Assembly (NCBI GenBank): GCA_015066665.1
Contig: SVNX01000003.1
Coordinates: 39,074-103,073 of the forward strand
Direction: 5' to 3'
Source of the DNA: Ruminococcus sp.
GTDB lineage: Bacteria; Bacillota; Clostridia; Oscillospirales; Ruminococcaceae
Length of the DNA stretch: 64,000 nt
The notes below the pieces were generated by a model, which worked only from the letters and a program-made list of their open reading frames with translations, was not told the origin of the DNA and did not search any database. Shown piece by piece: positions 29,582 through 57,925 of the stretch (position 1 is its first letter; every line of letters starts with the position of its first letter). Both the position numbers and the translations under genes were made by a program.

Positions 29582-29594
29582 GAGGGAATCGAAT

Positions 29595-30173: not shown

Positions 30174-30188
30174 AAGGAGGGAACGTCA

Positions 30189-30671: not shown

Positions 30672-30720
30672 TTTCCATCATCCCACCATAGAACCGGTCT
30701 TCGGACCGGTGACAACGATG

Positions 30721-30748
30721 TTCATTCCGTAAACGGAGTAACGATAAT
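30721..30748 (+). promoter_or_regulatory. Weak candidate promoter ahead of the 11-gene cluster
   Basis: TTCATT, 16-nt spacer, GATAAT. Preceded by the hairpin accggtc-ttcg-gaccggt at 30693..30710. Confidence 0.25.
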
Positions 30749-30760
30749 AAGAAAGGTTGC

Positions 30761-32539: not shown

Positions 32540-32561
32540 AAAACAGAGAAGGAGTAAAGCT

Positions 32562-38285: not shown

Positions 38286-38420
38286 AATGCCGTCCCCGTC
38301 CGGCCGGATGTGTCCATTCCGGACGCATCCGCCGGTGCGGCGGTGTGAAAATCGCAGTCCCTCGCTGCTTCGCAAGGTGCGGACAGTGCAGGGATCCAGT
38401 ATCTGAAAAGTGGTGATAGA

Positions 38421-39836
38421 ATGAACGCAGAAAGCGTGACACTGAACATTGCCGGCGAAGAAATGCCCGGCGCCTGGGCGGCAGGGGCAACCTATGCCAT
38501 CACCAGAGCCAATACGCCGTTTCTGCTGATCGTGGCAGAACGTGAGGATGCATTTCTGGACGCCATTCTGTATCAGAAGGGCGGTGCCGGACTGCTGGCA
38601 CAGGTCAAAATCCCCATGCAGATGATGCAGTGCCTGACGGATAAGCTGACGGGTGCATTCATGCAGCAGATTCTTCTGCGGCAGAAGCATGCACCGACGC
38701 GTGTGAATGAAGTGCTGCGTGATTTTTCCGCACTCTTCCGCCGGTCTCCCGAGGCGCAGCAGCTGTTTCAGCAGCTGGCAGGCATTGTCACAGCCGATCC
38801 GAATCAGCTGACGTTTTCCGGCATTCAGCCGGTCTTCCGCAAGCTGGTGCAGACCTGCGAGCTTGAGCCCGTCATGTATCCCCAGATCCTTCGGAAAAGG
38901 GGCATCGAAAATACAATGATGCAGCTCTATGCGGCCTCTTTGACAGAATGGAATCAGCTGACAGCCCTGCTTCGTGATTTTCTGCGCAGGCAGGCCGTCT
39001 GGCTGAATGAACCGAATGCCGATCTGCAGATCCATTTCTGCGGCAGTATCCGTAAGCTGGCCGTACTGGCCGAGCCCTCTGCCGTGCACAAGTCCACGAT
39101 ACAGATGAATCAGAACAGCCGTGACATGCTCTATGGCATGACCATGGAAATGCTCCGTGTACCTGAAAAACAAACGCCGTGGCGGATGCAGATGGCTATT
39201 TATGCCGGAGATTACGAAAAAATGATGCTGGAAGGCTATCACAATTTCCAGGCGAGAACGGCCGGTGCGCAGAATGCGGAAACCCATCCGGCAAACGTCC
39301 GTGTTTTCCACGATACTGTGCTCTCGCTGCCGGCGGAGTTTGGCATCTATGCAGGCAGTGTACAGGGGAGAAAGCTTCCTGTGAACGGCAGCCTCGTGCA
39401 GACCTCACCGCTTGACGGCAGTCTTTTGATTGCTCCCTTTTCTGATGCATTTTCGACCCTGATTGCGCAGGGCAAGGTCACTGTACAGAACATGCAGTGG
39501 ACGGCCGAGGGCGACAATCTGCAGTTCACCGTGGAATTCACCCATGAGGGACGCAGCATCCGTCCGGCACCGCGTATCTATACACCACAGGATGTGTGCC
39601 GTGTAACGACACCCCCTGAACTGATTTTGTTCCGCACGCCGGGCACCTCCGGGATGCATGTGCGGATGGAGAATACCACCATGCAGGCTGCACTTTACGG
39701 CGGCATCCGGCGAGGAAAGGCTGTTCAGGCGCAGGCCGGCATGTATCGGTATTATTTTAAACTGTATCGGGATGATGCATTCCTTGGGCAGTTCGATTAT
39801 CTCCTGGCGAAAGGAGTGAGTGCAGGCAATGAATGA
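38421..39836 (+). CDS. Cluster gene C: hypothetical protein sharing a ~75-aa module with giant protein B
   Basis: [20 protein letters not shown]...[26 protein letters not shown] aligns with ALAPFSSEFADMVANKQIRL...WEFFVEFEYKRRNMKTKTRVYKPEEQ in B. Confidence 0.6.
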
Positions 39837-41544
39837 TGAGAATCAGATGGGTTTTAACCCGTGGGGCATGGATTTCGGTGACCTCGGCGAACCCGTGAAA
39901 AAGAAAACGTCCCCGCCGGCACCGCAGCCCAGCCCCGAACCGGAAGCAGAAGCCCTTCCCGAAATCCCGAATTTCTTCGGCGGCTTCGGCGATCTCGGCG
40001 AGCCTGTGAAGAAGGCCGAACCGAAACCGGAACCCAAGCCGGAACCCGAGCCAACGCCCGAACCGGAAGCAGAAGCCCTTCCCGAAATCCCGAATTTCTT
40101 CGGCGGCTTCGGCGATCTCGGCGAGCCTGTGAAGAAGGCCGAACCGAAACCGGAACCCAAGCCCGAGCCGAGCCCCGAACCGGAAGCAGAAGCCCTTCCC
40201 GAAATCCCGAATTTCTTCGGCGGCTTCGGCGATCTCGGGGAGCCTGTGAAGAAGGCCGAACCGAAACCGGAACCCAAGCCCGAACCCGAGCCGACGCCTG
40301 AACCGGAAGCAGAAGCTCTTCCCGAAATCCCGAATTTCTTCGGCGGCTTCGGCGATCTCGGGGAGCCTGTGAAGAAGGCCGAACCGAAACCGGAATCCAA
40401 GCCGGAACCCGAGCCGACGCCTGAACCGGAAGCAGAAGCCCTTCCCGAAATTCCGAATTTCTTCGGCGGTTTCGGCGATCTCGGCGAGCCTGTGAAGAAG
40501 GCCGAACCGAAACCGGAACCCAAGCCCGAACCCGAGCCGACGCCCGAACCGGAAGCAGAAGCCCTTCCCGAAATCCCGAATTTCTTCGGCGTCTTCGGCG
40601 ACCTCGGCGAGCCTGTGAAGAAGGCCGAACCGAAACCGGAACCCAAGCCGGAACCCGAGCCGACGCCTGAACCGGAAGCAGAAGCTCTTCCCGAAATTCC
40701 GAATTTCTTCGGCGGCTTCGGCGATCTCGGTGAGCCTGTGAAGAAGGCTGAACCGAACCCGGAACCCAAGCCTGAACCCGAACCGAGCCTCGAACCGGAA
40801 GCAGAAGCCCTTCCCGAAATCCCGAATTTCTTCGGCGGCTTCGGCGATCTCGGCGAGCCTGTGAAGAAGGCCGAACCGAAACCGGAACCCAAGCCCGAAC
40901 CCGAGCCGACGCCCGAACCGGAAGCTGCTGCTATGGATGAGTGCACAGGCACGGAGGATGTACAGGAAGAACCGGCTGTCGGCTTTGATACACCTTTTGC
41001 TGCAGAAACGGAGGAAGCCCCTGCATCTCCCGCCCTCCCGGATGCACCGGACGAGGCGGATCTGGCCTTGTTTGACGCAGCGGAGACGGAAGAACCCGTC
41101 GGGGAAGAAGCTTCAGTCTGGGATGATGCGGTCATGGAGCCGTGCTATGATTCCGATGAAATCACCGCAGCACTGCCGGACAAGGATCCCTACTGCCGAC
41201 TGACTGTGCCCGCCGTTTCGGAGGATGCCCTCTGGAAGGCAGAATGCCGCAGTGCCATGCCGGCCGACGGCGAAGCCATGCTCGAAAGCGTGCTGCAATG
41301 GATGCAGGGAAGTGAGAAGGTCTTCCATTATCCGAGAATCCCGCTGGGTGACCGCGGATGGAGTGTGGAGGAGATTCTGAAGCATCCGGCTGTCCGCAGC
41401 GAAATCACCCGCAGCGGTGCCAAGCTCTGGGAGGAAACCATCCGCCAGTCCGAGACGGGAACCGCACCCGACTGGATTCGTCTGGCATGGAACCGCAAAA
41501 TGATGCAGCATGCGGTGGACTACTTCATGATCTGTATGCGATAA
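39829..41544 (+). CDS. Cluster gene D: FG-motif / PEPK-spacer tandem-repeat protein with a globular C-terminal domain
   Basis: 9 [10 protein letters not shown] motifs, 8 of them preceded by [14 protein letters not shown] is 12 nt after an AAGGAG RBS and overlaps the end of gene C by 8 nt. Confidence 0.7.
39874..40926 (+). repeat. In-frame tandem repeat: 8 full copies of 123 bp (one is 117 bp) plus a partial first copy
   Basis: Copy starts measured at 39961, 40084, 40201, 40324, 40447, 40570, 40693 and 40816. Only scattered substitutions between copies. Confidence 0.95.
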
Positions 41545-41573
41545 AAATAAATAGGAATAGGAGGAGATTTGAT

Positions 41574-43145
41574 TTGGCAAAGTTGATGTATGAAAATGAA
41601 GTCGACGGCGACGGCTTTCCGGAGTGCAAAGATCAGACAAACACAATGCAGCTGTCGTTCAGCGAAGTCAGGGAACACAACTACATCTTTGATACTGTGC
41701 TTGTCGGAGACGGCACAATGATGAAATTCTGCTACAATGAGGAGCAGGATCAGCTCTATGCATTCGAAGTGAATCCCGAAACCGGCGAGGCAGCGGAGAA
41801 TGTGACCGTGCATGCGATCTTCGATCAGGAGCTTGAACTTGAAAAGGGCACCTATACCATCGAGCTGGAAGGCGATACCTTTGCGGTGACAAAGGAAGAG
41901 CAGTCCGTTCTTAAGGGCGGCAGCGTCAGTGCGCTTGTCAGCGGCAGGGATGCCAACAAGATGGTGCTGAAGAACAATGTCGAAGCCGGCAAGGAATATC
42001 TCGCTGAGAATCAGTCCGGTGACGCCGTCACCGATGCACCGGCTGCCGAAGTTCAGACCGATGCCCCTGCTGCGGAGACTCCGCAGGCAACTGAGGAAAC
42101 TTTTGCGACACTTTCAGTGGAGCAGCCGTCCACAGAAACCGCTGCAGCAGGCGATGAGGGCGGCGGCAGTCCTGTTCTTGTGATTCTGCTTATCGTGGCA
42201 GCTGTCGCCGCACTGCTGGCATGCGGTGCTGCGGCTGTGTTTGCTGTGATGTTCAAAAAAGCCAAGAGTGAAACGGATATGCTCAAAAAGAAGGTGCGTG
42301 CACTTCAGAATGAGAGCAGCAGCAAGACCATGCTGATTGATGAAGCCAAGGCAAGCAGACATCAGAGCGAAGGTGCCATCGAGACGCTTGAATCCGAAAA
42401 TAACGAGCTGAGAGCCATGAACCAGAAGCTGATGCAGAACGAAAAGGCATGGGAACAGAAGCTCAATGATATGCATGCCGATGCCACACAGAAGCTCGAG
42501 GAGAAGGACGCACAGCTTGCCAAGATGCGCAGCACTGCCGAGGCGTGGAAGGAATACGCCGAAAAATGGAAAAATTATGCCGATCAGCTGAAGCAGTATT
42601 CGGATCGTATGGAAGGCAATGTGCAGCAGCTCGTACAGAGACTGATCAATTACGAGCAGGTCAATGCCGAACTTCTGGCATCGCAGGCACCCGCTGCACC
42701 CGATGCACCGGAACAGACCGAGCAGACGGCCCCTGCTGCAGAACCCGAGTTCACACCGGAACCCGAGGAGACACTGGAGGACAGAGCACTGCGGATCTCT
42801 CTTGATCTCGATGAGGTCGACCGCTATCCGGAAGCCGTCTTCCTGAATGTGGCCAATATGATGACCGGTGAGGTGCGCCTGAGTGCCGCTTCCTCCTACA
42901 GAACGGCACCCATCGTGCTGATCGGCCGGTATCTGTACCTGAATCCCTATTTCTTTGTGGATCTGCCCAAGCGCAGAGAGTCGGTCAATAACCTCAGAAG
43001 TGTGGAGGCCATTTATGAGATTTCCGGACTGGGCGGCGGCAATCTGCCCTATGGACTGGATTACATCAGCCCGGCACAGGCCACCGATATTGACGGCAAG
43101 AGCTTCCGTCTTGACAGCAAGGGCCGCATGACCGTCAGTGCGTAG
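41574..43145 (+). CDS. Cluster gene E: single-pass membrane protein (N-terminal domain, TM, coiled coil, conserved C-terminal domain)
   Basis: TTG start 7 nt after a GGAGGAG RBS, with an alternative ATG at 41586. TM PVLVILLIVAAVAALLACGAAAVFAVMF followed by KK. Heptad-rich segment. C-terminal domain is paralogous to gene F. Confidence 0.65.
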   Translation: MAKLMYENEVDGDGFPECKDQTNTMQLSFSEVREHNYIFDTVLVGDGTMMKFCYNEEQDQLYAFEVNPETGEAAENVTVHAIFDQELELEKGTYTIELEGDTFAVTKEEQSVLKGGSVSALVSGRDANKMVLKNNVEAGKEYLAENQSGDAVTDAPAAEVQTDAPAAETPQATEETFATLSVEQPSTETAAAGDEGGGSPVLVILLIVAAVAALLACGAAAVFAVMFKKAKSETDMLKKKVRALQNESSSKTMLIDEAKASRHQSEGAIETLESENNELRAMNQKLMQNEKAWEQKLNDMHADATQKLEEKDAQLAKMRSTAEAWKEYAEKWKNYADQLKQYSDRMEGNVQQLVQRLINYEQVNAELLASQAPAAPDAPEQTEQTAPAAEPEFTPEPEETLEDRALRISLDLDEVDRYPEAVFLNVANMMTGEVRLSAASSYRTAPIVLIGRYLYLNPYFFVDLPKRRESVNNLRSVEAIYEISGLGGGNLPYGLDYISPAQATDIDGKSFRLDSKGRMTVSA

Positions 43146-43178
43146 AATCAAATAACATGATACGGAGAAGAGGATGCT

Positions 43179-44621
43179 ATGGTCGTTTCAATTATTTTCA
43201 ACGTCATTCTGCTCCTGTTCGGCGCTTTCTGCGTGTGGAGCATTTATGTGTACAACGGCAGACTGCGGCAGCTGGATGAGGATAAGCAGCGTCTGCGTGA
43301 AGAACGCAACGCTGCCGTTCAGGAGCTGAACGAGAAGAAATTCCTGCATTCCTATCATAACCGTCCTGAGGCTGTGCAGCAGCAGGAGGAACAGATGAAG
43401 ACACTGTCCGATGAGAATCGCAGACTCCGTCAGGCACTTGCGCAGTATCATCAGGGACATGTTCCCGGAATCCAGGAAATGACAAAGCAGATCAATTCCA
43501 TGAAGATGCGTAATCAGGCACTGGATGATCAGATCAAGCAGATGAAGAACCGGGAGTTCTCCCTCGAGTCGGAGATCAAGGGCCTCAAGAATACCATTGA
43601 TGCCCTCGAACGGACAACACCGGGTTCGTCCGCAGCGGCCGGCAGTGCGGAAACCGTACAGCTTCGAGCCAGAGCGCAGGAGCTGGAGGAGGCACTGGCA
43701 CGCAAGACCAAAGAATGGAATGAGCTTGACATCCGCTGCAGGAAGCTGGAAGCCCGCATCGATCAGGATAACGAGGACGATAAGGTGCTCCGCCGCCAGC
43801 AGACCGAGGAAACCGAGGTACTGCAGAACCGTGTGCAGACACTGAACCGTCAGATTGAGACGGAACGGGATCAGTTCAGGGAGAAGTATGCAGAGCTGAT
43901 GCAGCAGCAGAAGGCGCTTGAGGAACAGAGCCGTGTGCGTGAGCAGGAGCTGGAAGCCCTGCAGAGCCGCATCCGGAGTATGGAATCGGCACTCTATGAC
44001 GCCCAGATGGGCAAGGATGCTGCCCCCGAAAGCGCTTATGACCGCCGCACTGTGGAGGCGGCCCTGAGACAGAAGGAAGATGAAATTACCCGTCTTGAGC
44101 AGCGTGTGGCTTCCATGGAACGGGATGTGACCTACCTGCAGAAGGAGTGCCGTGCCAAGACCAGAGCCTATGAGGAGCTGCAGAAGGATCAGACAGCACT
44201 CGAGAGAGCATATGAACGTCTTCTTGCAGAGCAGGAAGAAATTGTGCCCGAGGAGGTGGAAGATGCATCGGCAGACTATCTGCGGATGGCAACGGACTGC
44301 GATGCCCTTGATGAGGAAACGGAGGCACTGTATCTGCACATGAGTGTGGATCTGTCCGGCGGTGTGCGTCTGACCAATTCCGGCAGCTTCCGGAATGCAG
44401 CCGTTGTCCTTTTGCCGGACGGTGCGCTGATCCCCAATCCCTATTACTACAGAATGCCCGTGAGCGGACTTGATCTGATGGGTCTGGAGCGGCTGTTTGC
44501 CCTGCCGGAAGGTCTGGTGAAAGCGGAGCATTACCGTCTGACCGAGGTGGAACCGGCACGGGCCGAAGACCGCAGCGGCAGCATTGTGGTAACGGCACGG
44601 GGGCGTCTCGGAATCGGATAA
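43179..44621 (+). CDS. Cluster gene F: N-terminally anchored coiled-coil protein with the same C-terminal domain as gene E
   Basis: TM at residues 2-25, about 330 aa of E/Q/R/L-rich coiled coil and a C-terminal ..GGVRLTNSGSFRNAAVVLLPDGALIPNPYYY.. domain. Confidence 0.7.
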   Translation: MVVSIIFNVILLLFGAFCVWSIYVYNGRLRQLDEDKQRLREERNAAVQELNEKKFLHSYHNRPEAVQQQEEQMKTLSDENRRLRQALAQYHQGHVPGIQEMTKQINSMKMRNQALDDQIKQMKNREFSLESEIKGLKNTIDALERTTPGSSAAAGSAETVQLRARAQELEEALARKTKEWNELDIRCRKLEARIDQDNEDDKVLRRQQTEETEVLQNRVQTLNRQIETERDQFREKYAELMQQQKALEEQSRVREQELEALQSRIRSMESALYDAQMGKDAAPESAYDRRTVEAALRQKEDEITRLEQRVASMERDVTYLQKECRAKTRAYEELQKDQTALERAYERLLAEQEEIVPEEVEDASADYLRMATDCDALDEETEALYLHMSVDLSGGVRLTNSGSFRNAAVVLLPDGALIPNPYYYRMPVSGLDLMGLERLFALPEGLVKAEHYRLTEVEPARAEDRSGSIVVTARGRLGIG

Positions 44622-44719: not shown

Positions 44720-46258
44720 GTGAGGCCGGAGACCGGCGGCAGATATCAGTACTGCAATCAAATATATATCAGCAGAATGGAGGCGTTACGCTTGGATAAA
44801 GCAAGACCGAATATCGCTTTGGTGGAAGAAAACAAAGCAATGAAGCAGGAAATTCGTGCCATGGAGGAGCACCATCGCAAGCAGCTGGCCGAAGTGAAGG
44901 CTGCACTGGAACAAAAAGAACAGGCACTTGCCGCACTGCGTCAGCAGACGGAGAGCATGGAGCAGCAGACCGCCCAGCTGCAGGCTGCTGCCGCACAGGC
45001 ACAGTCCGAGGCAGCCGCACTGCGTGAGGGAAGTGAAAAGCTGCAGAACCAGAGTGCCCGCTTCAAGAGGGATTATGCTGCCCTGCAGGAGAAATATTAT
45101 AAGCTCAACGACAGCTCAAGAGAACGCATTGCGGCACTCCAGAAGGAACTGGCCGCAGTACATGCAGAGAATCCCGAAAGTCCGCAGGAACAGCTGCAGG
45201 CACTGCAGCAGGAGAAGGAAGACCTTCAGCAGAAGCTTGCGGCACAGAAAACAAGATACACCCGTGAGCTGAGCTTCTGGGAGGAGAAGTACCGGAAGTT
45301 CTATGATGATGCCATGCTCAAGATCAGTGCGAGAGACAATGCCATTGCCGTTCTCCGCCGCCAGAACCAGACCGATGAGACGGAAAAGCTGATCGCAGCC
45401 AAGAACGAGGAAATCACCGTTCTGCGTAAGGAACTGACCGAGCGCACCCAGGCCTTCCAGCGTGAAATGAGCCTGCTTGAACAGCGCCACCGCAAGCTGT
45501 ATGAAAGTGCCATGGCAAAGCTTAATGCCAAGGACAGAGAGATCGCAGAGCTGCGTCACCGCTATGAGACATCCGACATGGCAAGAGCAACGGATGCCCT
45601 GCGTCAGGAGAATGAACGCCTCAGCAATGAGCTGGAAATGCGTAAGGATACTCATGCAAGAGAAATCAAAACCTGGCAGAAACGCCACAAGAAGCTCTAT
45701 GAGGATACCATGGAGCAAATCCGTCGCCTTGAGAATGAGCTGGCCGCTTACCGCAAGGAAGAGCCCGGCCGGAAGGGCTTTGCTACCCCCGAAGAGGAAT
45801 TGCTCGCCTGGGATCTGGAATACCAGCGTGAGCTGAGCGGCTGGGAGACCCAGTACCGCAAGCCCGCAGAGGATACCTCTGTGCAGGAAGAGAATCAGCC
45901 GGTATCTCTTTCGGATATTCAGTCCATCGCAAGGGACGAGGCGCATGCCGGAAAGCGCATTCCCACCGCTCAGAAGCCTGCGGCCAAGCCCGCAGTGCTC
46001 AGCCCCGTGGATGTGCTCCGACAGGAGAACGAGAAGCTCCGTCAGGCACTCGAGGCTGAACAGCAGGCACATCAGCAGGACAAGGCCGCACTCACCGCAG
46101 AGCGTGAGAAGCTCGCATCCCAGATGCTCTCGGGTCTTGATCAGCGAGACCGCATCATCGAGGCACTGCAGACAAGCCTTGCTGCATGGCAGACTTCTTC
46201 CGCAGAGCTGAGAAATCTTTGTCAGCCCGCCGATCGGGAGCAGGGCGGCAAGGCATAA
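44720..46258 (+). CDS. Cluster gene G: soluble coiled-coil protein with ~65-aa internal repeats
   Basis: GTG start after GGAG, with an alternative ATG at 44777. Repeated R-E-x-(S/K)-x-W-x-x-(K/R)-(Y/H)-(R/K)-K-(F/L)-Y-(D/E)-x-(A/T)-M units. Confidence 0.65.
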   Translation: MRPETGGRYQYCNQIYISRMEALRLDKARPNIALVEENKAMKQEIRAMEEHHRKQLAEVKAALEQKEQALAALRQQTESMEQQTAQLQAAAAQAQSEAAALREGSEKLQNQSARFKRDYAALQEKYYKLNDSSRERIAALQKELAAVHAENPESPQEQLQALQQEKEDLQQKLAAQKTRYTRELSFWEEKYRKFYDDAMLKISARDNAIAVLRRQNQTDETEKLIAAKNEEITVLRKELTERTQAFQREMSLLEQRHRKLYESAMAKLNAKDREIAELRHRYETSDMARATDALRQENERLSNELEMRKDTHAREIKTWQKRHKKLYEDTMEQIRRLENELAAYRKEEPGRKGFATPEEELLAWDLEYQRELSGWETQYRKPAEDTSVQEENQPVSLSDIQSIARDEAHAGKRIPTAQKPAAKPAVLSPVDVLRQENEKLRQALEAEQQAHQQDKAALTAEREKLASQMLSGLDQRDRIIEALQTSLAAWQTSSAELRNLCQPADREQGGKA

Positions 46259-46288: not shown

Positions 46289-47716
46289 ATGCAGGATCTG
46301 TTTGAACGTGTGCGTGAATATTATTATCAGGAGCGCGGCCGGAGCTGGGAACAGAACTGGGAGCCGTATCAGGTGGAATCCCAGGGCCGCTGGACACGGA
46401 TTTCGTCTCGGAATCGGGATGATCTGCGCAGACTGCATGCGGCAGTGTTTCTGTTTGCGAAAAACGGCGTGCTCGGGCAGGAGGAAGCCCGTGCCATGCT
46501 GGAGGAAAAAATGGAGCTGGCCGGCCGGATCCGCACGCTTGGCAGTGCATCGAACTTTACGGTTACTGTGGATTATGCCGCCGTGTATCCCATTATGGAA
46601 GAGAATGTGACGGTTGGCTATGATGTACTGCTGCGGTACATGCCGGAGCAGAGCGTGTGTGAACGTCTCGGCCGTGATATTCCCTTGCAGGAACGTGTCC
46701 GCTGCCTTCTTCGGACAGATACGCCCGAAGCGGCAGCCCAGCGTGATGCACTTGGAGCACAGCTTGTCCGCAGCATTGCCATGGCCATACAGGAGATGGC
46801 ACATGCCGGACTGCACCACGGCCACATCAGCCCCGATACCCTCCTTGCACGCAGCAGCGAGGGTGTGACTGAATTTGCACTGCAGGTGCCGGGGCTGGAG
46901 CGCTTTCTGAAAAGCGATGCGGAGGATCGTCTGGTGACGGATCTGTATACTGCTCCCGAGCTGCTGCTTGATCCGGCGCAGAATTTTGACATGCAGACCG
47001 ATCTGTATGCCGCCGGTCTGCTGCTCTATCAGCTGCTCAATGAGGGAAAGCTGCCGTTCGAGTCGGAGAAGGTTTCGCCGGATGAGGCCGCACGCATCCG
47101 CATGCAGGGTGCAGAGGAATTGCCCCTCCCGAGAAACGGCTGCCGTCTTTTGCAGTACATCGCAAGAAAATGCTGTGCTCACGACAGGTCGCATCGCTAT
47201 GCGGATGCGGCGGAGCTGCTTGAAGATCTGCGGCGTATGGGCAGCAGCTTCCTGACCGGATATGATCCGGCAGAAGTGGTGACCCGTTCGGAACGTGCCT
47301 GCACAGAAGCGACAGAGGCGGCTGCTGCGGAAGAAGCCTCCTGGGCTGAGAAGTACCATGCGCTCGAAGAAGAGACCGCCCGTCTTCTCAGAGAAAAGGA
47401 TGAGCAGCTCCGCAGACTGCACGAAACCGCCGCACAGTGGCGTGCCTACAGTGAAAAATATCAGGAGAATGCAAAGATGTGGCAGAACTACGCCAATCAG
47501 CTCAAGCAGCAGGTGGATTATCTGCAGCAGAGTCTCCAGCAGAATCCGCAGCCGGTTCGTCAGGATATGATGGCCCAGCGTATGGCATCACCCATGCCTG
47601 CGGACGGCGGCGTTAAGGATACACTGAACAATGTCTTCTCCTCCATTTTTGGCGGAGAACAGAACAAGCCCCCCATGCCGGACGGGGATATCTTCAAAAT
47701 GCTCGGCGGAAAGTAA
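46289..47716 (+). CDS. Cluster gene H: kinase-fold protein lacking catalytic residues (pseudokinase candidate) with a coiled-coil tail
   Basis: Kinase C-lobe pattern GLHHGHISPDTLL..QVPGLERF..YTAPELL..DLYAAGLLLYQLLNEGKLPF..HDRSHRY. HRD is replaced by HGH and DFG by PGL, and there is no G-loop. Confidence 0.65.
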   Translation: MQDLFERVREYYYQERGRSWEQNWEPYQVESQGRWTRISSRNRDDLRRLHAAVFLFAKNGVLGQEEARAMLEEKMELAGRIRTLGSASNFTVTVDYAAVYPIMEENVTVGYDVLLRYMPEQSVCERLGRDIPLQERVRCLLRTDTPEAAAQRDALGAQLVRSIAMAIQEMAHAGLHHGHISPDTLLARSSEGVTEFALQVPGLERFLKSDAEDRLVTDLYTAPELLLDPAQNFDMQTDLYAAGLLLYQLLNEGKLPFESEKVSPDEAARIRMQGAEELPLPRNGCRLLQYIARKCCAHDRSHRYADAAELLEDLRRMGSSFLTGYDPAEVVTRSERACTEATEAAAAEEASWAEKYHALEEETARLLREKDEQLRRLHETAAQWRAYSEKYQENAKMWQNYANQLKQQVDYLQQSLQQNPQPVRQDMMAQRMASPMPADGGVKDTLNNVFSSIFGGEQNKPPMPDGDIFKMLGGK

Positions 47717-47740
47717 CACGGAAGGAAAGGAGCCTTGGAA

Positions 47741-49453
47741 ATGCAGGATCTGTTTGAACGTGTAAGAGAATATTATTATCAGGAACGCGGCAGAGGCTGG
47801 GAAATGAACTGGGAACCGCATCAGCTCGATCTTTCCGACCGCTGGAGCTGTATTGCGCCAAGAAATAAAAATGACCTGCGCCGGATGTTTGTCGGCACGC
47901 TTCTGTATGCAAAGGCAGGTCTGACCTCCCGAGAGGAGGCCGAGGCACTCTTCATTGAAAAGAATCGTCTGGCCGGAAAAATTCAGGATCTCGGTGACTA
48001 CACGCTGTATACGACCAAAGTGGATTATGCCGTTGTCAAGGATATCGAGGAGGACGGCGAATATGTCGGCTTCGATGTGCTCCTGCGCTATGAACCGGAG
48101 CAGTCCGCTGTGGAGCAGGCTGCCGCAAGTGCCGCACAGCGTGACCGCATCCGGCATGTTCTGCATGATGGTTCACCCGATGCGGAAAAGCTGAGAAACC
48201 GGATCGGCGAGCAGCTTGTGCACAGCATTGCACTCGCCTTGCAGGAAATGGAGCGTGTCGGGCTGCATCACGGTCATATCAATCCCGAACATCTCATGCC
48301 CTATGAGCACGACGGCACACTTGAATTCCGTCTGCATATTCCGGGCTTTGACAGTCTGCTCAAATCCGATGCGGATGACCGCATGGTCGTCGATTACTAC
48401 AGTGCACCGGAGCTGATCAATGACAGCGCACAGCCATTCGATGTCAGCACGGATCTGTATTCCATGGGCATTCTTCTCTATCAGCTGCTCAATGAGGGGA
48501 AGCTGCCGTTTGAATCGGATACCGTTTCTCCCGACCAAGCTGCCCAGCTGCGCAGCCAGGGTACAAAGGAGATACCGCTGCCGAAGCACGGCTGTCGGCT
48601 GCTTCAGTATATCGCACGCAAGGCCTGTGCCTTTAGCAGGGTGCATCGTTATGCCAATGCCGCCGATGTTCTGGAAGATCTCAAGCGCATCGACAGCAAG
48701 GTGCTCACGGGCTATGACCCCATGGAGATTGTGACCTCCGGCGGAAAAGTCCCCGCACCGAATCAGGTCGGTACAGCGGATGCCCGTGCACTGCAGGCTG
48801 CCCGTGCAGAAGCAGAAATGCTGCGTGCCGAGCTTGCCAGAATGAAAGCCGAGGCGGACAGCGCCCTTCAGGCCGCAAAAGCCTGTGAGACACTGCACAG
48901 GGAAAAATCCGTGCTGGAAGTGAAGAATAAACAGCTTGAAGCCAAGAATAAGCAGCTTGAAGCCAAGAATAAGCAGCTTGAGAGTAAGTGCAGCAAGCTT
49001 GAAGTTGCCTGCAATATGTTGGAAATGAGCACCATTGTCAGTCAGAAGGATCGTGATGACAGGGAAGCGGCTCTCAGGCGTGAGTCGGCACTCCGGAAGG
49101 AGAACGATACGCTCAAAGCTGCCTGTGAACAGCTCAGACACGAACTGGCCGACTGTCGGAAGCAGGCAGAACAGGCCAAAGCGAAGCCCGCACCGGTGGA
49201 TACGGGACTGCAGAAAAAAATGCAGAGCCTTGAGACCCAGCTTGCCGAAGCCCGTGCAGAACTGGATGTGTGGCAGAAACGTGCTGAAAAATGGAAGAAC
49301 CACGCCTGGATGATGTATGCCCGTCAAGGCAGCGGTGCCCCCATGCCGTCCCATGAGAATACATCAGGGGTGACGCATGAGGAAACCATGCGCAAAAAGC
49401 GTGAGGCAGTCATTGATGCACGTTTTGAGCAGGAGCTGAGACAGAAAAAATGA
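47741..49453 (+). CDS. Cluster gene I: pseudokinase-candidate paralog with a long coiled-coil tail
   Basis: The first ~85 nt are nearly identical to gene H (MQDLFERVREYYYQERGR). GLHHGHINPEHLM..IPGFDSL..YSAPELI. Confidence 0.65.
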   Translation: MQDLFERVREYYYQERGRGWEMNWEPHQLDLSDRWSCIAPRNKNDLRRMFVGTLLYAKAGLTSREEAEALFIEKNRLAGKIQDLGDYTLYTTKVDYAVVKDIEEDGEYVGFDVLLRYEPEQSAVEQAAASAAQRDRIRHVLHDGSPDAEKLRNRIGEQLVHSIALALQEMERVGLHHGHINPEHLMPYEHDGTLEFRLHIPGFDSLLKSDADDRMVVDYYSAPELINDSAQPFDVSTDLYSMGILLYQLLNEGKLPFESDTVSPDQAAQLRSQGTKEIPLPKHGCRLLQYIARKACAFSRVHRYANAADVLEDLKRIDSKVLTGYDPMEIVTSGGKVPAPNQVGTADARALQAARAEAEMLRAELARMKAEADSALQAAKACETLHREKSVLEVKNKQLEAKNKQLEAKNKQLESKCSKLEVACNMLEMSTIVSQKDRDDREAALRRESALRKENDTLKAACEQLRHELADCRKQAEQAKAKPAPVDTGLQKKMQSLETQLAEARAELDVWQKRAEKWKNHAWMMYARQGSGAPMPSHENTSGVTHEETMRKKREAVIDARFEQELRQKK

Positions 49454-49475
49454 TCGTTGAAAGGAGCGAAGGAAT

Positions 49476-51626
49476 ATGCAGGATCTGTTCGACCGTATCG
49501 CCGAATATGAAGTGCTGGAACGATATAAAGGTTGGGGCGCAGACTGGAAGCCCTATAAAGAGGAAAGAGAAGGACGCTGGGTAAGAATCGCACCGAAGAA
49601 TCCGGATGACCGCCGCCGTCTCTATGTGAGTCCCTTCCGTTTTGATGAGAAGGGCATCTACGATCAGAATGAAGCACTCACTTTGCTTGAGGAAAAGCGT
49701 GCTTACATGGAAAAGGTGCAGAACCTCGGCAAAACCGCAGTCTATACCTGCGGAGTGGATTATGCCGCAGTGAAGGAACTGGAGGAGGGCGGACAGACCG
49801 TCGGGTTTGATGTGCTGCTGCGCCATGTACCCATGGTTCCGGTGCAGACATATCTGCGGACGAATGACGCTGCCGCCCGTAAAGCAAAGCAGCTGATGCA
49901 GGGAACCGATCCTGATACGGAGGAGGCCAGAAACCGTGCCGGTGAAATGCTGGCCGGCCACCTGACACTTGCACTGCAGGAAGTGTACCATGCCGGCCTC
50001 AGCCATGGACATATCAATCCTGAGCATATCCTGATGGAAGCGGACGGCAGCAGTGAGGAGATCCGTCTGAGCATTCCCGGTGAGGATGCCCTTTTCAAAT
50101 CCGCAGCCGATGATCGGAAGACAACGGATTACTATACCGCCCCCGAGCTGATTGCGGATGAATCGAGACCGGTGGACATGCAGTCGGATCTGTATTCCGT
50201 CGGCCTGCTGCTTTATCAGCTGCTCAATGAGGGGAGGATGCCCTTTGAATCGGATGCCGTGTCCCGTGAGGAGGCCGCTCACATCCGAAACAGCGGCGAG
50301 CAGCCGATTCCAGCACCGAAGAACGGCAGCCGGCTTCTGCAGTACATCGCTGTCAAGTCCTGTGCCCATGACCGTGCGGATCGCTATCAGGATGCGCCCC
50401 AGCTTCTTGAGGATCTCAAGCATGCCGACAGCAAGGTGCTCAACGGGTTTGCGCTGTCTTCACTTGTGACCATCGGTGCAGCAGCCAAGCAGAGAAGAGC
50501 CGCCGCTGCTGCGGATAAGCAGCGTCAGGCGGAACAGGTCAGAGCAGAAGCCGCCCGCATGCAGCAGGCACAGAAAAGTGCACAGGCAGCTCCTGTCGAT
50601 CTTAGCAAGAAGACGAAAGCAAAGAAGGAGCCGCCGAAGCCCGCCCCCATGCCCGTGAATATGCCGCAGCAGCATCCGTCGGCCTCCGGCGGCAGTGCAT
50701 ATCAGAATGCAGCCGCTTCCTCCGGCGGTGCTCCCGTACAGAATGCCCCCATGCATCAGGGGGCCATGCAGGCAGCGCCCCGTCCGCAGCCCATGCCGCA
50801 GCCCGGCTATGCCGGCGGTCAGGCGGGCCCCCGCAAGCGTTTCAATCCTGCATGGATTCTTGTGCCCATCATTCTTGTTGTCATCATTACCATTGCACTT
50901 CTCATTGGTGCCATCAGCATGATGAGCAAGCTCGGTTCCGATCAGGGCAGTCTTTCGGCGAACAGCAGTGGTTCCGTTTCCGCAGAAAGGGCTGAAAGTG
51001 CCGCACCCAAGGAGAGCCTTGCCCCCACAGAGGCACCGACCGCCATCCCCACCGAACCGCCGACGCAGCCCCCCACGGATCCGCCCACGGAACCGCCGAC
51101 CACCGAACCGCCCTATGTGCCCCCGACGTACATCGTGGTACAGGGCAAGTATACATGGGAAGAGGCACAGGCGGAATGTAAGGCAAGGGGCGGCCATCTT
51201 GCGACAGTCCACTCCAATGAAGAGTGGCTTCTGCTGATGGATACCGTCAGCAATGCACAGCTGTCCAACAGCAATCTCAAGTACCTCTGGATGGGTGGCC
51301 TGTCCGAGCTGAAGGAACGTCCCGACGGTGAAATGTATGCCGAATTCAAGTGGGTTGACGGTTCCGATGTTACCTATATTACTGATAAGTCCCGCTTTGG
51401 CCATTGGTTCTATAATGCCGAGCTGGATATCTATGAGCCTTCCGGATACGATGCCTATGAGTATCTGAAGAACAACAAAAAAATCGCAGAGCCGTATCTG
51501 CTGCTCTGGAACGTGGCAGCCAAGAAGGGAGCCGATCTGAAGTGGTCGCTCAATGATGTGGGCGACGTCTCCCCCTATCCGCAGTACAAGGAGAGCAATA
51601 TGGGCTTTGTCATGGAGCTTGACTGA
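49476..51626 (+). CDS. Cluster gene J: pseudokinase-candidate paralog, TM helix, Pro/Thr linker, extracellular C-type lectin-like domain
   Basis: GLSHGHINPEHIL..IPGEDAL..YTAPELI. RKRF followed by TM WILVPIILVVIITIALLIGAISMM. Then YTWEEAQAECKARGGHLATVHSNEEWLLL..LWMGG..WVDGS. Confidence 0.65.
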   Translation: MQDLFDRIAEYEVLERYKGWGADWKPYKEEREGRWVRIAPKNPDDRRRLYVSPFRFDEKGIYDQNEALTLLEEKRAYMEKVQNLGKTAVYTCGVDYAAVKELEEGGQTVGFDVLLRHVPMVPVQTYLRTNDAAARKAKQLMQGTDPDTEEARNRAGEMLAGHLTLALQEVYHAGLSHGHINPEHILMEADGSSEEIRLSIPGEDALFKSAADDRKTTDYYTAPELIADESRPVDMQSDLYSVGLLLYQLLNEGRMPFESDAVSREEAAHIRNSGEQPIPAPKNGSRLLQYIAVKSCAHDRADRYQDAPQLLEDLKHADSKVLNGFALSSLVTIGAAAKQRRAAAAADKQRQAEQVRAEAARMQQAQKSAQAAPVDLSKKTKAKKEPPKPAPMPVNMPQQHPSASGGSAYQNAAASSGGAPVQNAPMHQGAMQAAPRPQPMPQPGYAGGQAGPRKRFNPAWILVPIILVVIITIALLIGAISMMSKLGSDQGSLSANSSGSVSAERAESAAPKESLAPTEAPTAIPTEPPTQPPTDPPTEPPTTEPPYVPPTYIVVQGKYTWEEAQAECKARGGHLATVHSNEEWLLLMDTVSNAQLSNSNLKYLWMGGLSELKERPDGEMYAEFKWVDGSDVTYITDKSRFGHWFYNAELDIYEPSGYDAYEYLKNNKKIAEPYLLLWNVAAKKGADLKWSLNDVGDVSPYPQYKESNMGFVMELD

Positions 51627-51627
51627 T

Positions 51628-52749
51628 ATGAAGAAATCGCTTATGATCACGCTTTGCGTCTGCATTCCCTGCAGCGTGGTGTGCCTTGCAGCTATTGTGC
51701 TTGGCAGCGTCTACCTGAGCAGCCGTGAGGCGGCCGGGCGGACAGAAGACGGAAAAGCTGCACTTGAAACGTATTTTTCACCGATGACAACGGAAACACC
51801 GGACGCAGCAGCCATGCAGACCGCCGAAACGGAAGCTCTCACCGAATCCGAAGTCCCCGCTGAAACCGAAGCCCCCACGGAAACAGCGCCCCCTGCGGAG
51901 ACGGGGCCTGTGGATTATTCCAATGCCGGCGGCGGTACCAGCAGTGCCAATGTGTTTAACGGCGGCTTCATCGCCACGGATGGCGAACGGGAATACTTCC
52001 GCGGCAACGACGGCGGAATGTATTACAATGAGATCGGATCGTCGGAAGCCTATAAGCTGCTGGACAATGCCATCTTGTATCTGAATGTCCAGGGCGGATG
52101 GCTGTACTTTGCCGATCAGACCAACCAGTGCATGGCGAAGATGCGCACGGATGGCACGGACTATCAGATCCTCTATCCGGCCAATGTGCACGAGGTCAAT
52201 GTCAGCGGCAGCTACATCTACTTCTGCAGCGATACGCAGCTGATGCGTATGCGTACGGACGGCATGGAGCTGGAGACACTGTGCGACGGCAAAATCTGGT
52301 TTCTGAACGTCGTCGGACAGGAGCTGTACTTCTGCCGGATCGGGGATGAGCGTGCCATGTGCCGGTGCAGTGTGGACGGATCGGACTTCGAGACCATCAT
52401 TGCCGCAGAGGTCTATGACATTCTGGTCTACGGCGGCTATATCTATTACTGCTTCGGCCGTGATGAGCGTTATCTTTACGCCCGCAGCCGTGATACCGGT
52501 GAAGTCACACAGATCACAAATAATTATACCCGCTGGATCAATACCGACGGCATTCATGTATATTACACGAACTTTGAAGGCCATACCGAAGAAGGTGTGG
52601 GTTACGGCAATACCATGTACCGTGTCGATCTCCACGGCGGCGGCAATGAACAGCTCTTCACAGATATCGTGGAGGGCATGTGCATCCAGAACGGCAAGCT
52701 GCACTACATGAATACCGACCTTGAAAAGAAATATGTGGAGCTGTATTGA
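51628..52749 (+). CDS. Cluster gene K: membrane-anchored DUF5050-like beta-propeller protein
   Basis: ATG is 1 nt after the gene J stop. N-terminal TM, an acidic T/E/A linker and repeated blades (..GGWLYF.., ..GSYIYF.., ..GQELYF.., ..GGYIYY.., ..GIHVYY.., ..NGKLHY..). Confidence 0.6.
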   Translation: MKKSLMITLCVCIPCSVVCLAAIVLGSVYLSSREAAGRTEDGKAALETYFSPMTTETPDAAAMQTAETEALTESEVPAETEAPTETAPPAETGPVDYSNAGGGTSSANVFNGGFIATDGEREYFRGNDGGMYYNEIGSSEAYKLLDNAILYLNVQGGWLYFADQTNQCMAKMRTDGTDYQILYPANVHEVNVSGSYIYFCSDTQLMRMRTDGMELETLCDGKIWFLNVVGQELYFCRIGDERAMCRCSVDGSDFETIIAAEVYDILVYGGYIYYCFGRDERYLYARSRDTGEVTQITNNYTRWINTDGIHVYYTNFEGHTEEGVGYGNTMYRVDLHGGGNEQLFTDIVEGMCIQNGKLHYMNTDLEKKYVELY

Positions 52750-53574: not shown

Positions 53575-53647
53575 TCATGTCACAATGGCAAGGCTCTCCG
53601 TCCATGATGGAGAGCCTTTGCTGTATCCGGACAGGAGGTGCAGGTCC

Positions 53648-55042
53648 ATGCTTTTTTCCAGTATTCCGTTTCTTTTCTATTTTCTGCCCGCAGTGCTGAT
53701 CGTCTATTTTGCTGTGCCGAAGTGCCTGAAAAATACAGTGCTGCTGCTCTTCAGCCTGCTTTTCTATGGCTGGGGTGAGCCGCGGTACATCATTTTCATG
53801 CTCATCAGTGTTGTCTGCGGCTATGTCTCGGGTCTCTTGCTCGAAAAGTGGAAAGGCAGGCCCGCTGCAAAAGCCGTACTGTGGGGATCAGCGGCGGTTT
53901 TTCTCGGTATGCTCGGCTATTTCAAATATGCTGACTTCTTCATCGAAAATTTCAGTGCCGTTACGGGTCTGTCCGTGAAGCTGCTCGGGCTGACATTGCC
54001 CATCGGCATCAGCTTCTATACCTTCCAGATCCTCAGCTATACCATTGATGTATATCGGGGTGATGCCCCCGCACAGAGAAATCCCATTCATCTGGCGGCC
54101 TATATCGCCCTCTTCCCGCAGCTGATTGCCGGCCCCATTGTCCGTTATGCCGATGTTGCCGCACAGCTGACAGAGCGTCCGCATTCCTTCGAGAAGACAG
54201 CCCTCGGCATCCGGCGGTTCCTGCTTGGCCTGGGCAAGAAGGTGCTGATTGCGAACGCCCTCGGCGAGATCGCCCCGCTCTTTGCCGATTCCGGTGAGAA
54301 ATCCGTGCTGTTCTACTGGCTCTATGCGGTTTCTTATTCGCTCCAGATCTATTTCGATTTCTCCGGCTACAGCGACATGGCCATTGGACTTGGACATATT
54401 CTGGGCTTTACGTTCATGGAGAATTTCGACCATCCCTATATGTCCCGCAGCATCACGGAGTTCTGGCGCAGATGGCATATCTCCCTCGGCTCGTGGTTCA
54501 GGGATTATGTTTATATTCCTCTCGGCGGCAATCGTGTCGGCAAGGCACGGTGGCTGCTGAACATCCTGATCGTCTGGTTCCTGACGGGCTTCTGGCACGG
54601 TGCCGCATGGAATTTCATTGTATGGGGATTGTATTTTGCTGTGTTCCTTGTCGCAGAGAAGCTCTGGCTGAAGAAGTATCTGGACAAGTCCAAGGCCCTG
54701 TGCCATGTGTATGTGGTGCTGACGGTCGTGGTGAGCTTTGTGATCTTCGGTGCGGCCGATCTTGGTGCGGCGATGCATTGCCTCGGCGGTATGACGGGCT
54801 TTGCGGACGTACCGGCCGTGACAACGGAGTCACTCTATTATCTGCGCAGCTATGCCCCGCTGCTTGTGATTGCCTGCATCGGTGCAACGCCTTTCCCGAA
54901 GCAGTGCTTTGCCGCAATTGAAAAGAAGTGCGGAGGCGTCATGACCGTGCTCGAGCCCTGCCTGCTGGCAGTCCTGCTGCTTGTTGTGACAGGCAGCCTT
55001 GTGAACGGTTCGTTCAATCCGTTCCTGTATTTCCGTTTCTAA
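53648..55042 (+). CDS. MBOAT-family membrane O-acyltransferase (AlgI/DltB-like)
   Basis: Polytopic membrane protein with FWRRWHISLGSWFRDYVYIPLGGNR, which contains the MBOAT His motif. Confidence 0.88.
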   Translation: MLFSSIPFLFYFLPAVLIVYFAVPKCLKNTVLLLFSLLFYGWGEPRYIIFMLISVVCGYVSGLLLEKWKGRPAAKAVLWGSAAVFLGMLGYFKYADFFIENFSAVTGLSVKLLGLTLPIGISFYTFQILSYTIDVYRGDAPAQRNPIHLAAYIALFPQLIAGPIVRYADVAAQLTERPHSFEKTALGIRRFLLGLGKKVLIANALGEIAPLFADSGEKSVLFYWLYAVSYSLQIYFDFSGYSDMAIGLGHILGFTFMENFDHPYMSRSITEFWRRWHISLGSWFRDYVYIPLGGNRVGKARWLLNILIVWFLTGFWHGAAWNFIVWGLYFAVFLVAEKLWLKKYLDKSKALCHVYVVLTVVVSFVIFGAADLGAAMHCLGGMTGFADVPAVTTESLYYLRSYAPLLVIACIGATPFPKQCFAAIEKKCGGVMTVLEPCLLAVLLLVVTGSLVNGSFNPFLYFRF

Positions 55043-55055
55043 GGAGGGATCTCTT

Positions 55056-56150
55056 GTGAAGCATAAAATCACCACCATTTTCATGGCCGTGCTGCTGTTT
55101 GGCATGTCCCTGTGCTGCTGGTTCAGAAAGCCGGCAGAAAGCTCCGAAAGCGAGCGCCGTGTGCTGGCACAGTTTCCGGAGATCTCAGCCGATGCCATTC
55201 TGTCGGGCAAGTTCATGAAGGATTTTGAAAGCTATACTCTCGACCAGTTTCCGCTGCGTGACGGCTTCCGGAGCGTGAACAGCTTTACCACGCTCATGGT
55301 CTTCGGCCGGCAGGATACGAACGGACTCTATCTGGAGGACGGCTATCTCTCAAAGCTCGAATATCCCATGCAGCCGAAGATGCTTGACCACGCTGCCGAT
55401 CGTTTCCGCTTTATCTATGAGCAGTACCTCGCAGAGAAGGACAATCAGGTCTATTTCTCCATCGTGCCGGACAAGAACTGTTTCCTTGCCAGGGAAAGCG
55501 GACGGCTCTCCATGGATTATGAGGCACTTGTGCAGTACATGCGGGAACGTACGGACTATATGACCTATATCGACATCATGCCGCTGCTTTCGCTGGAGGA
55601 TTATTACTGCACCGACACCCACTGGCGGCAGGAATGCATCACGGATGCAGCTGCGGCCCTTGCAGAGGGCATGGGACAGCGTCTTTCGGCGTCGTATGAG
55701 GAGAGGACGCTTGACCACCCGTTTGAGGGTGTGTATTACGGACAGATGGCACTGCCGGTGCAGCCCGATACCATCCGGTATCTGACGAATGACACGCTGG
55801 AGGCGTGCCGTGTGTACATCCACGATACGGGCAAGCCTGTTGAAACGGATGTGTACAATATGGAAAAGGCCGTGAGCCGTGACCCGTATGAGATGTTCCT
55901 CTCGGGTGCCAATGCGCTGATGACCATTGAAAATCCGAATGCAAAGACGGATCGGGAGCTGCTGGTCTTCCGTGATTCGTTCGGCAGCAGCCTTGTACCG
56001 CTGCTTTGTGAGAATTACGCCAAGGTCACGCTTGTGGACATCCGGTATGTGCAGAGCGGTATGCTTGGCAATCTGATCGATTTTGAACAGCAGGATGTGC
56101 TCTTCCTGTACAGCACCCTGATTCTGAACAACAGCCTTGCACTGAAATAA
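55056..56150 (+). CDS. DHHW-family protein (AlgX/AlgJ-like partner of MBOAT)
   Basis: GTG start 7 nt after an AAGGAGGG RBS. N-terminal TM, CTDTHW motif and FRDSFG motif. Confidence 0.75.
   Translation: MKHKITTIFMAVLLFGMSLCCWFRKPAESSESERRVLAQFPEISADAILSGKFMKDFESYTLDQFPLRDGFRSVNSFTTLMVFGRQDTNGLYLEDGYLSKLEYPMQPKMLDHAADRFRFIYEQYLAEKDNQVYFSIVPDKNCFLARESGRLSMDYEALVQYMRERTDYMTYIDIMPLLSLEDYYCTDTHWRQECITDAAAALAEGMGQRLSASYEERTLDHPFEGVYYGQMALPVQPDTIRYLTNDTLEACRVYIHDTGKPVETDVYNMEKAVSRDPYEMFLSGANALMTIENPNAKTDRELLVFRDSFGSSLVPLLCENYAKVTLVDIRYVQSGMLGNLIDFEQQDVLFLYSTLILNNSLALK

Positions 56151-56230: not shown

Positions 56231-57925
<1,695 letters not shown>

Follow-up and report, generated by a model that had tools for sequence, protein, structure and literature searches.

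What does a protein kinase fold do for a bacterium once the residues that make it a kinase have been lost? The question is raised by three adjacent, co-oriented genes, here called H, I and J, at positions 46289-51626 of a 64,000-nucleotide (nt) stretch of Ruminococcus sp. DNA (assembly GCA_015066665.1, contig SVNX01000003.1; the whole stretch is called the window below). The original prediction, made from the DNA letters, was a triplet of kinase-fold paralogs lacking the HRD Asp, the catalytic-loop Asn and the DFG Asp. Sequence comparison supports the reading of all three proteins as pseudokinases, and we consider it probable that they descend from a clostridial receptor Ser/Thr kinase and are now docking modules, without catalysis, of a conserved but undescribed envelope-associated gene cluster of Oscillospiraceae; the scaffold or adaptor role is one that we infer from the analysis as a whole. 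The three genes are arranged as follows.

46289-47716, plus strand: H, 475 amino acids (aa), putative soluble pseudokinase delimited by its open reading frame (ORF), its Pkinase match and a structure model; kinase-like domain aa 1-333, coiled-coil tail aa ~335-440, then a short FG-containing end.
47741-49453, plus strand: I, 570 aa, putative soluble pseudokinase whose kinase-like domain (aa 1-333) is followed by a long coiled coil (aa ~345-530).
49476-51626, plus strand: J, 716 aa, putative membrane pseudokinase; kinase-like domain aa 1-333, then in order a low-complexity linker, one membrane helix, a Pro/Thr-rich stalk and a C-type lectin domain (CTLD).

All three proteins pass the gathering score of the Pfam Pkinase family (31.7 bits), scoring 35.1 (H), 33.2 (I) and 42.0 bits (J), with the match limited in each to the C-lobe (profile positions ~95-258); their best relatives of solved structure by sequence are StkP and PknB. 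The C-lobe landmarks on which the original prediction relied are in place: the APE motif reads TAPEL in H and J and SAPEL in I (aa 221-225), RY(A/Q)(D/N)A is found at aa 303-307 in each protein, and both APE and D238, the alphaF Asp, are invariant in the family. The N-terminal 150 aa are invisible to profiles. An AlphaFold2 (AF2) model of H, built on a 12-sequence family alignment, reached a predicted local distance difference test score (pLDDT) of 91.2 and a predicted template modeling score (pTM) of 0.89, whereas the three paralogs alone as the alignment had given a pLDDT of 35. The model opens with an additional N-terminal helix (aa 4-15), which is followed by three strands, a long alphaC helix (aa 64-87), two further strands and a complete C-lobe, and in Foldseek (E ~1e-11 to 1e-9) it aligned over ~300 columns to PknB, Stk1, BTK and the pseudokinase MLKL. 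Because the model contains a five-strand N-lobe with alphaC and finds these matches, the N-terminal 150 aa are taken to be a real N-lobe, and the model shows the two-lobed protein kinase-like (Hanks, or eukaryotic protein kinase) fold of H, I and J to be complete; structure prediction, which had been proposed as a check, thus returned the full fold. The pseudokinase domain of MLKL, although among the best matches by both sequence and fold, is 14-20% identical to the three proteins, which reflects the general kinase fold and no specific kinship.

The alignment register of the catalytic motifs was tested in four ways, namely by phmmer against StkP and PknB, by the family profile against sequences of the Protein Data Bank (PDB), by MAFFT with 11 active relatives, and by hhalign of the family profile against the profile of the active clade (probability 100%, E 2e-40, 248 columns). 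One register emerged from all four, and in none did it shift so as to restore canonical residues, the outcome that had been named as the refutation of residue loss. It places the catalytic sites at the following positions.

46814-46840, plus strand: catalytic-loop remnant of H, HHGHISPDT, in which the D, K and N of HRDxKxxN are replaced by H179, S181 and T184.
48266-48292, plus strand: catalytic-loop remnant of I, HHGHINPEH (MAFFT alignment and motif mapping).
50001-50027, plus strand: catalytic-loop remnant of J, SHGHINPEH (phmmer, MAFFT and motif mapping).
46886-46894, plus strand: DFG equivalent of H, V200-P201-G202 (MAFFT and hhalign).
48338-48346, plus strand: DFG equivalent of I, IPG (MAFFT and motif mapping).
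50073-50081, plus strand: DFG equivalent of J, IPG (MAFFT and motif mapping).

The string H-R-D-I-K-P-Q-N of the active relatives pairs with H-G-H-I-(N/S)-P-(E/D)-(H/T) in H, I and J. The catalytic Asp of HRD is absent, its place being taken by His179 in the three paralogs and, in each of the 12 representatives of the family, by His, Cys or Ser; the catalytic-loop Lys has become Ser or Asn, and the catalytic-loop Asn has become Thr in H and His in I and J and is retained in only three of 12 family members (P0007, P0016 and P0018; proteins found in our searches are numbered with P, and loci with L). G-D-F-G pairs with S/Q/H-(I/V)-P-G both in MAFFT against the active relatives and in hhalign. 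The DFG Asp is replaced by Val in H and by Ile in I and J, no family member has Asp at this site, no conserved acidic residue lies within +/-2 of it, and shifting the register over that range yields no conserved Asp. The claimed loss of the three residues in H, I and J therefore holds in four alignments and, for both Asp residues, throughout the family. The catalytic-loop strings had been read correctly, but the nucleotide ranges assigned to them included flanking codons, and two began 1-2 nt out of frame; the DFG equivalents, taken to be PGL, PGF and PGE, are in fact (V/I)PG, one residue earlier (MAFFT, hhalign).

The predicted absence of a GxGxxG loop was also borne out, as no G.G..G pattern occurs in the three kinase-like domains, and ~20 residues are missing in MAFFT where the active relatives carry the Gly-rich loop GRGSFGAVYE. 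The beta3 Lys (AALK) pairs with Trp35 in MAFFT, in a region of low confidence, and there is no conserved Lys on either candidate beta3 strand (aa 35-40 and 48-58). Asp95 and Asp112 are conserved, but they have counterparts in the active clade (CDD and GWD) from which they were inherited, and are therefore best regarded as structural residues and not as a migrated catalytic pair. Judged by sequence, H, I and J fall within the operational definition of a pseudokinase, a kinase fold from which the beta3 Lys, the HRD Asp or the DFG Asp, or more than one of them, is missing: here at least two are absent, probably all three, and ATP binding has most likely been lost.

The family was found by an exhaustive hidden Markov model search of 1.84e9 (1.84 billion) protein representatives, which yielded ~11 full-length related protein clusters followed by many generic kinases matched via the C-lobe only. 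A word-indexed search with the family profile returned only the proteins of the window itself, with generic kinases filling the candidate list, and a scan of JGI metagenomes gave generic kinases only; our search for literature on the family found nothing. Every family cluster has (H/Y)G(H/C/S) in place of HRD and (I/V/P/F)P(G/S/L) in place of DFG. The nearest relatives are active receptor Ser/Thr kinases of Clostridia with intact GRGSFG, AALK, HRDIKPQN and DFG, none of which is present in H, I or J. Homology to these PknB/PrkC/StkP-like Hanks kinases (P0042, P0047, P0052 and P0057 among them) extends over almost the whole domain in hhalign, and strings specific to the clade are common to both groups: WPGW or W..W, G(W/Y/F)D (GWD) in beta5, D(I/L)YS.G, LLNE..PF, PKNGS, RY.SA.EML.DL and E.A...R..G...P.PK.GS..L..I..KA.A....RY. 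The N-terminus, described as family-specific in the original prediction, is so only in part, since its W..W is the WPGW of the active relatives (MAFFT). Members of the active clade often share the layout predicted for J, in which a single membrane helix joins a cytoplasmic domain to one outside the cell, whereas H, I and J differ from them in the extra N-terminal helix, in an insert of ~20 residues before alphaE and in the shortened Gly-rich loop region. One further protein, P0059, has HGG and DFA with a Gly-rich loop that is partly kept, and its genomic context is unrelated; from its sequence it looks like a case of independent or intermediate degradation.

Two other groups of matches deserve mention. 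The bacterial proteins P0012, P0013, P0017, P0019, P0027 and P0029 carry 2-7 tandem kinase-like domains, often with degraded domains (HGA, HCA, HRN) after a single intact HRD domain, and P0017 starts with an HHGH loop resembling that of H, I and J. In P0003 (L001, 7374-8495, located where a contig ends), the N-terminal ~260 aa of I pass at PFESD into a C-lobe of the canonical PrkC-like type; we do not count it as a fourth type of family member, because it is probably an assembly chimera formed through a shared k-mer at the contig end.

H, I and J are 46-57% identical to one another in protein sequence, and J has more in common with a J-type protein from another species (63%) than with either of the other two. 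The first ~85 nt of H and I had been described as almost identical and as a sign of recent duplication or gene conversion. Identity over this segment is indeed raised, yet it amounts to 86%, with several synonymous differences, against 61% over the whole domain, and the conserved 5' end of H and I is also present in the other species. For these reasons, neither recent duplication nor recent gene conversion between H and I is retained here. The triplet is intact in two further loci (L014 and L015), and comparison with strain L014 (97.6-98.5% nt identity) gave ratios of nonsynonymous to synonymous substitution rates (dN/dS) for the kinase-like domains of 0.14 (H), 0.07 (I) and 0.13 (J).

The genes are separated by 24 nt (H-I) and 22 nt (I-J), and each is preceded by a GGAG-type ribosome-binding site (in I, which starts with ATG, GGAGC 8 nt upstream); convincing terminators were found neither between them nor between their neighbours. 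The window also contains PolA, TsaD and fatty-acid synthesis genes, which identify it as chromosomal DNA, and because searches of phages, plasmids and viral contigs for the locus came back empty, nothing points to a mobile or phage origin. The three proteins are identical to database entries E7511_01650-01660 of a Ruminococcus sp. metagenome-assembled genome (MAG), labelled as hypothetical proteins; orthologs of H and J in Oscillospiraceae MAGs are publicly labelled 'protein kinase'.

The predicted tails, namely a coiled coil and an FG end in H, a long coiled coil in I, and a transmembrane helix plus lectin in J, were all recovered; three segments of them are placed as follows.

47333-47602, plus strand: aa 349-438 in the tail of H, with homology to the coiled coil of the membrane protein encoded at 41574-43145.
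50850-50924, plus strand: J membrane helix aa ~459-483 (hydropathy scan), with RKRF directly before it.
51108-51623, plus strand: J CTLD aa ~545-716 (Pfam Lectin_C, 32.3 bits against a threshold of 22.6).

A hydropathy scan detected no hydrophobic helix in H and I, whose tails match only coiled-coil families in Pfam and NCBIfam; I contains a 21-nt (heptad) repeat at 48923-48981 (KNKQLEA). In a search within the cluster, the H tail matched the coiled coil of the 41574-43145 protein with 35% identity over 92 aa (blastp, E 6e-12), and 31 residues of the I tail are homologous to the same protein (E 1e-4). In J, the RKRF before the helix, read with the positive-inside rule, would put the lectin outside the cell and the kinase-like domain on the cytoplasmic side. 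The J lectin contains the strings C..GGHLATVHS, WMGG, EPS and WSLND, and its PDB sequence matches are DEC-205 and snake-venom CTLDs. The landmarks C..GGHLA.(I/V)HS, W(M/L)G, EPS and W.xND are kept in five family members (P0005, P0006, P0007, P0011 and P0016), and the J layout of pseudokinase, helix and lectin, found in the same five, is the commonest in the family; at L012 a gene of its own encodes the lectin, and the pseudokinase is a fused double domain. The plan of J, with a putative sugar-binding domain outside and a dead kinase domain inside, recalls eukaryotic receptor pseudokinases, without any specific relationship to them.

The possible partners of these tails are encoded in the surrounding genes, listed here in order.

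30761-39836, plus strand: upstream half of the locus, with proteins of 592, 1,907 and 471 aa (synteny in L011 and L012).
39820-41544, plus strand: FG-repeat protein, with eight copies of a 41-aa unit and a conserved C-terminal domain.
41574-43145, plus strand: single-pass membrane coiled-coil protein, with the same C-terminal domain as 43179-44621 and a coiled coil like the H and I tails.
43179-44621, plus strand: coiled-coil protein anchored at its N-terminus, whose C-terminal domain (..NPYYY..) is conserved.
44720-46258, plus strand: 512-aa coiled-coil protein just upstream of H, with an ortholog retained in L018.
51628-52749, plus strand: membrane-anchored DUF5050 beta-propeller (Pfam E 1e-38; synteny in L004, L006, L012 and L014).

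Gene order was read in L002, L004-L007, L011, L012, L014 and L017. In the related loci, the pseudokinase gene always comes after one to three coiled-coil proteins bearing the C-terminal domain of 41574-43145 and 43179-44621, the latter being a core neighbour in all of them; a DUF5050 propeller usually follows (L002, L004-L007 and L017), and the pseudokinase itself is present in one, two or three copies depending on the lineage. Two longer Oscillospiraceae contigs, L011 and L012, contain the full locus in the order of the window: a GH3 hydrolase, two small membrane proteins, a ~590-aa protein, a protein of 1,200-1,900 aa (then the 471-aa and FG-repeat proteins), coiled-coil proteins, one or more pseudokinases, a lectin, and then DUF5050 or a transglutaminase. 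The C-terminal domain of the FG-repeat protein is conserved in L002, L004, L006 and L011. A sister species (L018, GCA_054266795.1) has the same flanks, with 77-90% nt identity to window positions 20494-56167, and lacks both window positions 29581-43164 and DUF5050; its single pseudokinase-lectin gene has a J-type body and first ~28 residues of the H/I type, an arrangement that suggests deletion or recombination inside the tandem array.

Our favoured explanation joins these parts. J would sit in the membrane as a receptor-like anchor, its C-type lectin binding a glycan outside and its pseudokinase domain held inside, while H and I would be lineage-specific soluble copies which, having heads of J's type, would pair with J or with one another; their coiled-coil tails would join the membrane-anchored coiled-coil proteins of the cluster. 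In this way H, I and J would tie a sugar-binding module at the surface to the cytoplasmic part of the machine, made up of the 1,907-aa and FG-repeat proteins.

Several points weigh against this explanation. The loss of canonical residues has misled before, since SelO, SidJ, POMK and WNK either kept activity or moved it. The pairing of W35 with the beta3 Lys falls outside the confident block of the hhalign alignment, and the site of the alphaC Glu is K/R80 by MAFFT but E72/E73, conserved in most members, by hhalign, so that this Glu may, on sequence, be retained in the family. The (H/Y)-G-H string and residues R47, F5 and R7 are conserved without an explanation and could form another active or binding site. 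Furthermore, L018 has neither the upstream half of the locus nor DUF5050 and still keeps a pseudokinase-lectin gene, so that a tie to the 1,907-aa protein is not obligatory.

Among the alternatives, the one that survives best, although we regard it as unlikely, is that an active Ser/Thr kinase, with its gene at another place in the genome, has H, I and J as allosteric partners or decoy substrates, in the manner of HER3 with EGFR or STRAD with LKB1, and that they do not scaffold the local cluster. Their closest kin, with a C-lobe much like their own, are active receptor kinases from the same group of bacteria, Thr residues are kept before APE in the activation segment, and fusions of a kinase with a pseudokinase in tandem occur among the matches (P0012, P0013 and P0019). 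However, no active kinase, phosphatase or FHA domain was seen in the cluster at any locus examined, the strict synteny is with proteins that are not kinases, and the tails of H and I have a homolog among the cluster proteins.

Less probable still is that the three proteins are atypical but active enzymes, with a rebuilt His-Gly-His site or migrated residues, performing phosphorylation or some other reaction that depends on a nucleotide (AMPylation, glutamylation or sugar phosphorylation). Atypical activity has precedents in SelO, SidJ and POMK (PMC12599244). Conservation of the (H/Y)GH loop, of N181/P182 and of P201-G202 across the family would fit such a site, as would a persisting alphaC Glu (hhalign); yet the family has no conserved Lys or Arg on the candidate beta3 strands, no Gly-rich loop and no conserved acidic residue at or beside the DFG position, H179 has become Cys or Ser in two of its members, and D95 and D112, as inherited residues, are structural.

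A place in a variant type VII secretion system, as EssB/YukC-like parts, is very improbable. EssB/YukC is a membrane pseudokinase and dimerising scaffold in the type VIIb secretion machine of Bacillota (PMC12599244, PMC11217815); like H, I and J it has all three catalytic motifs and the Gly-rich loop degraded, and J shares its topology of a cytoplasmic kinase-like domain, one membrane helix and an outside domain, as far as the topology of J can be read from RKRF. DUF5050 (TsgL) and membrane kinases (TscD) are known from type VII variants (PMC11217815), the 43179-44621 protein has a weak, sub-threshold WXG100-like match (E 3e-4), and an EccA-like AAA gene lies downstream in L006. Against this, the window and the related loci contain no FtsK/SpoIIIE (EssC) ATPase, no YukD and no bona fide WXG100 gene, H, I and J have no YukC/EssB family match at E<=1 in Pfam or NCBIfam, and their nearest relatives are Hanks kinases; it is because EssC is lacking that type VII secretion is rejected. 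The proteins also differ from EssB in keeping a full activation segment with APE, where that of EssB is much reduced, in the C-type lectin ectodomain of J, and in being, for H and I, soluble with coiled-coil tails. Finally, the notion of decaying, functionless duplicates, which the loss of all catalytic residues and a copy number of one to three between lineages might invite, is effectively refuted by intact ORFs with a ribosome-binding site each, by purifying selection (dN/dS 0.07-0.14), by a high-confidence fold from family covariation and by the same substitutions being kept in distant members.

The annotated bacterial pseudokinase families ActPs1-3, GLW, CP1, DYD and DLHK (O'Boyle et al. 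2025) belong to the same class, with three motifs degraded and predicted not to bind ATP, and bacterial pseudokinases with all motifs degraded are described as relatively common (PMC12599244), which makes H, I and J a small new family of a known kind. The GLW family is like H, I and J in its bulky Trp at the position of the beta3 Lys, and like J in its membrane helix after the domain; bulky hydrophobic residues at this position have been read as blocking ATP (PMC12599244). In contrast, these families come from Actinobacteria, Proteobacteria and Cyanobacteria and have other replacement motifs (GLW for HRD), where H, I and J have HGH for HRD and (I/V)PG for DFG, a separation drawn by published motifs and taxa only. 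No annotated bacterial pseudokinase family has been described with a lectin ectodomain or in the gene cluster of H, I and J.

The remainder of the locus offers further observations. The 592-, 1,907- and 471-aa proteins have no match in Pfam, NCBIfam, PADLOC or PDB sequences, and nothing came out of relaxed Pfam scans, run on pieces of the 1,907-aa protein and on the conserved domains of the neighbours. By eye, the 1,907-aa ORF (32562-38285) contains actin/Hsp70-like (ASKHA) phosphate-binding strings, VGVDFGTRNS, ITDGGDGTYDF and YLYGGTAQ; one of its internal domains has a paralog in the ORF at 38421-39836, and the gene is duplicated in L011 and split in L012. The 592-aa protein (30761-32539) is 51-53% identical to its counterparts in L011 and L012, and its Gly-rich strings AYGGTGSLVGR and AGSTDGGTANTMIDKD recall tubulin/FtsZ loops, but a tubulin/FtsZ identity found no support, as hhalign against B. 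subtilis FtsZ gave a probability of 2%. The DNA of the FG repeats comprises 8.1 tandem copies of a 123-nt unit (39934-40925), and the related loci in short-read assemblies all break within this gene. FG-rich strings also end the 1,907-aa ORF (GGFGDFFSGFGNMGGMGFDM) and H (VFSSIFGG...FKMLGGK); together with the repeats, these ends suggest, at the level of sequence motifs, a shared short linear motif. At L006 (9559-13511) and L002 (7566-11340), the cluster extends further, to a transglutaminase-core protein, an AAA ATPase (AAA_lid_6) of the CbbX/EccA/SpoVK type and a YbjN-like protein, genes that are absent from the locus in the window.

Just 3' of the cluster, at 53585-56150, lies a pair of MBOAT (AlgI/DltB-like) and DHHW-family genes that may serve surface-polymer acylation and whose position L014 and L018 keep and L012 does not. 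On the minus strand, the gene of a large serine recombinase follows (56231-57910), after which G+C falls from ~55% to 36-47%; the segment 56231-64000 is probably an integrated mobile element that borders the MBOAT/DHHW genes and is unrelated to the cluster. Anti-phage defence was considered and discarded, because the PADLOC matches (MkoA, mad6 and PD-T4-6) reflect generic kinase domains and nothing else of a defence system is present.

To our knowledge, bacterial pseudokinases are almost unstudied, and a scaffold role has been worked out for EssB/YukC only. The family described here offers a natural series that leads from an active parent clade through the partly degraded P0059 (HGG, DFA) to full degradation, and a tandem array of one receptor form and two soluble forms whose fixed gene partners provide candidates for binding; the public label 'protein kinase' of the H and J orthologs is thereby corrected. 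The more unusual part is the conserved and entirely unannotated locus around the pseudokinases, outside 46289-51626: it spans ~22 kb in Oscillospiraceae that are abundant in the gut and rumen, and its largest proteins are those without a database match. We tentatively entertain the possibility, which goes further than the docking explanation and which we hold with distinctly less confidence, that the pseudokinases are membrane-proximal couplers of an undescribed envelope-spanning apparatus specific to Oscillospiraceae. Outside, this apparatus would present the C-type lectin and the DUF5050 propeller; inside, it would consist of stacked coiled-coil proteins, the eightfold FG-repeat protein and the 1,907-aa protein, and duplication would have split an ancestral J-type receptor into one receptor and two soluble adaptors. 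If this is true, the locus would encode no signalling pathway, but a new kind of bacterial cell-surface machine.

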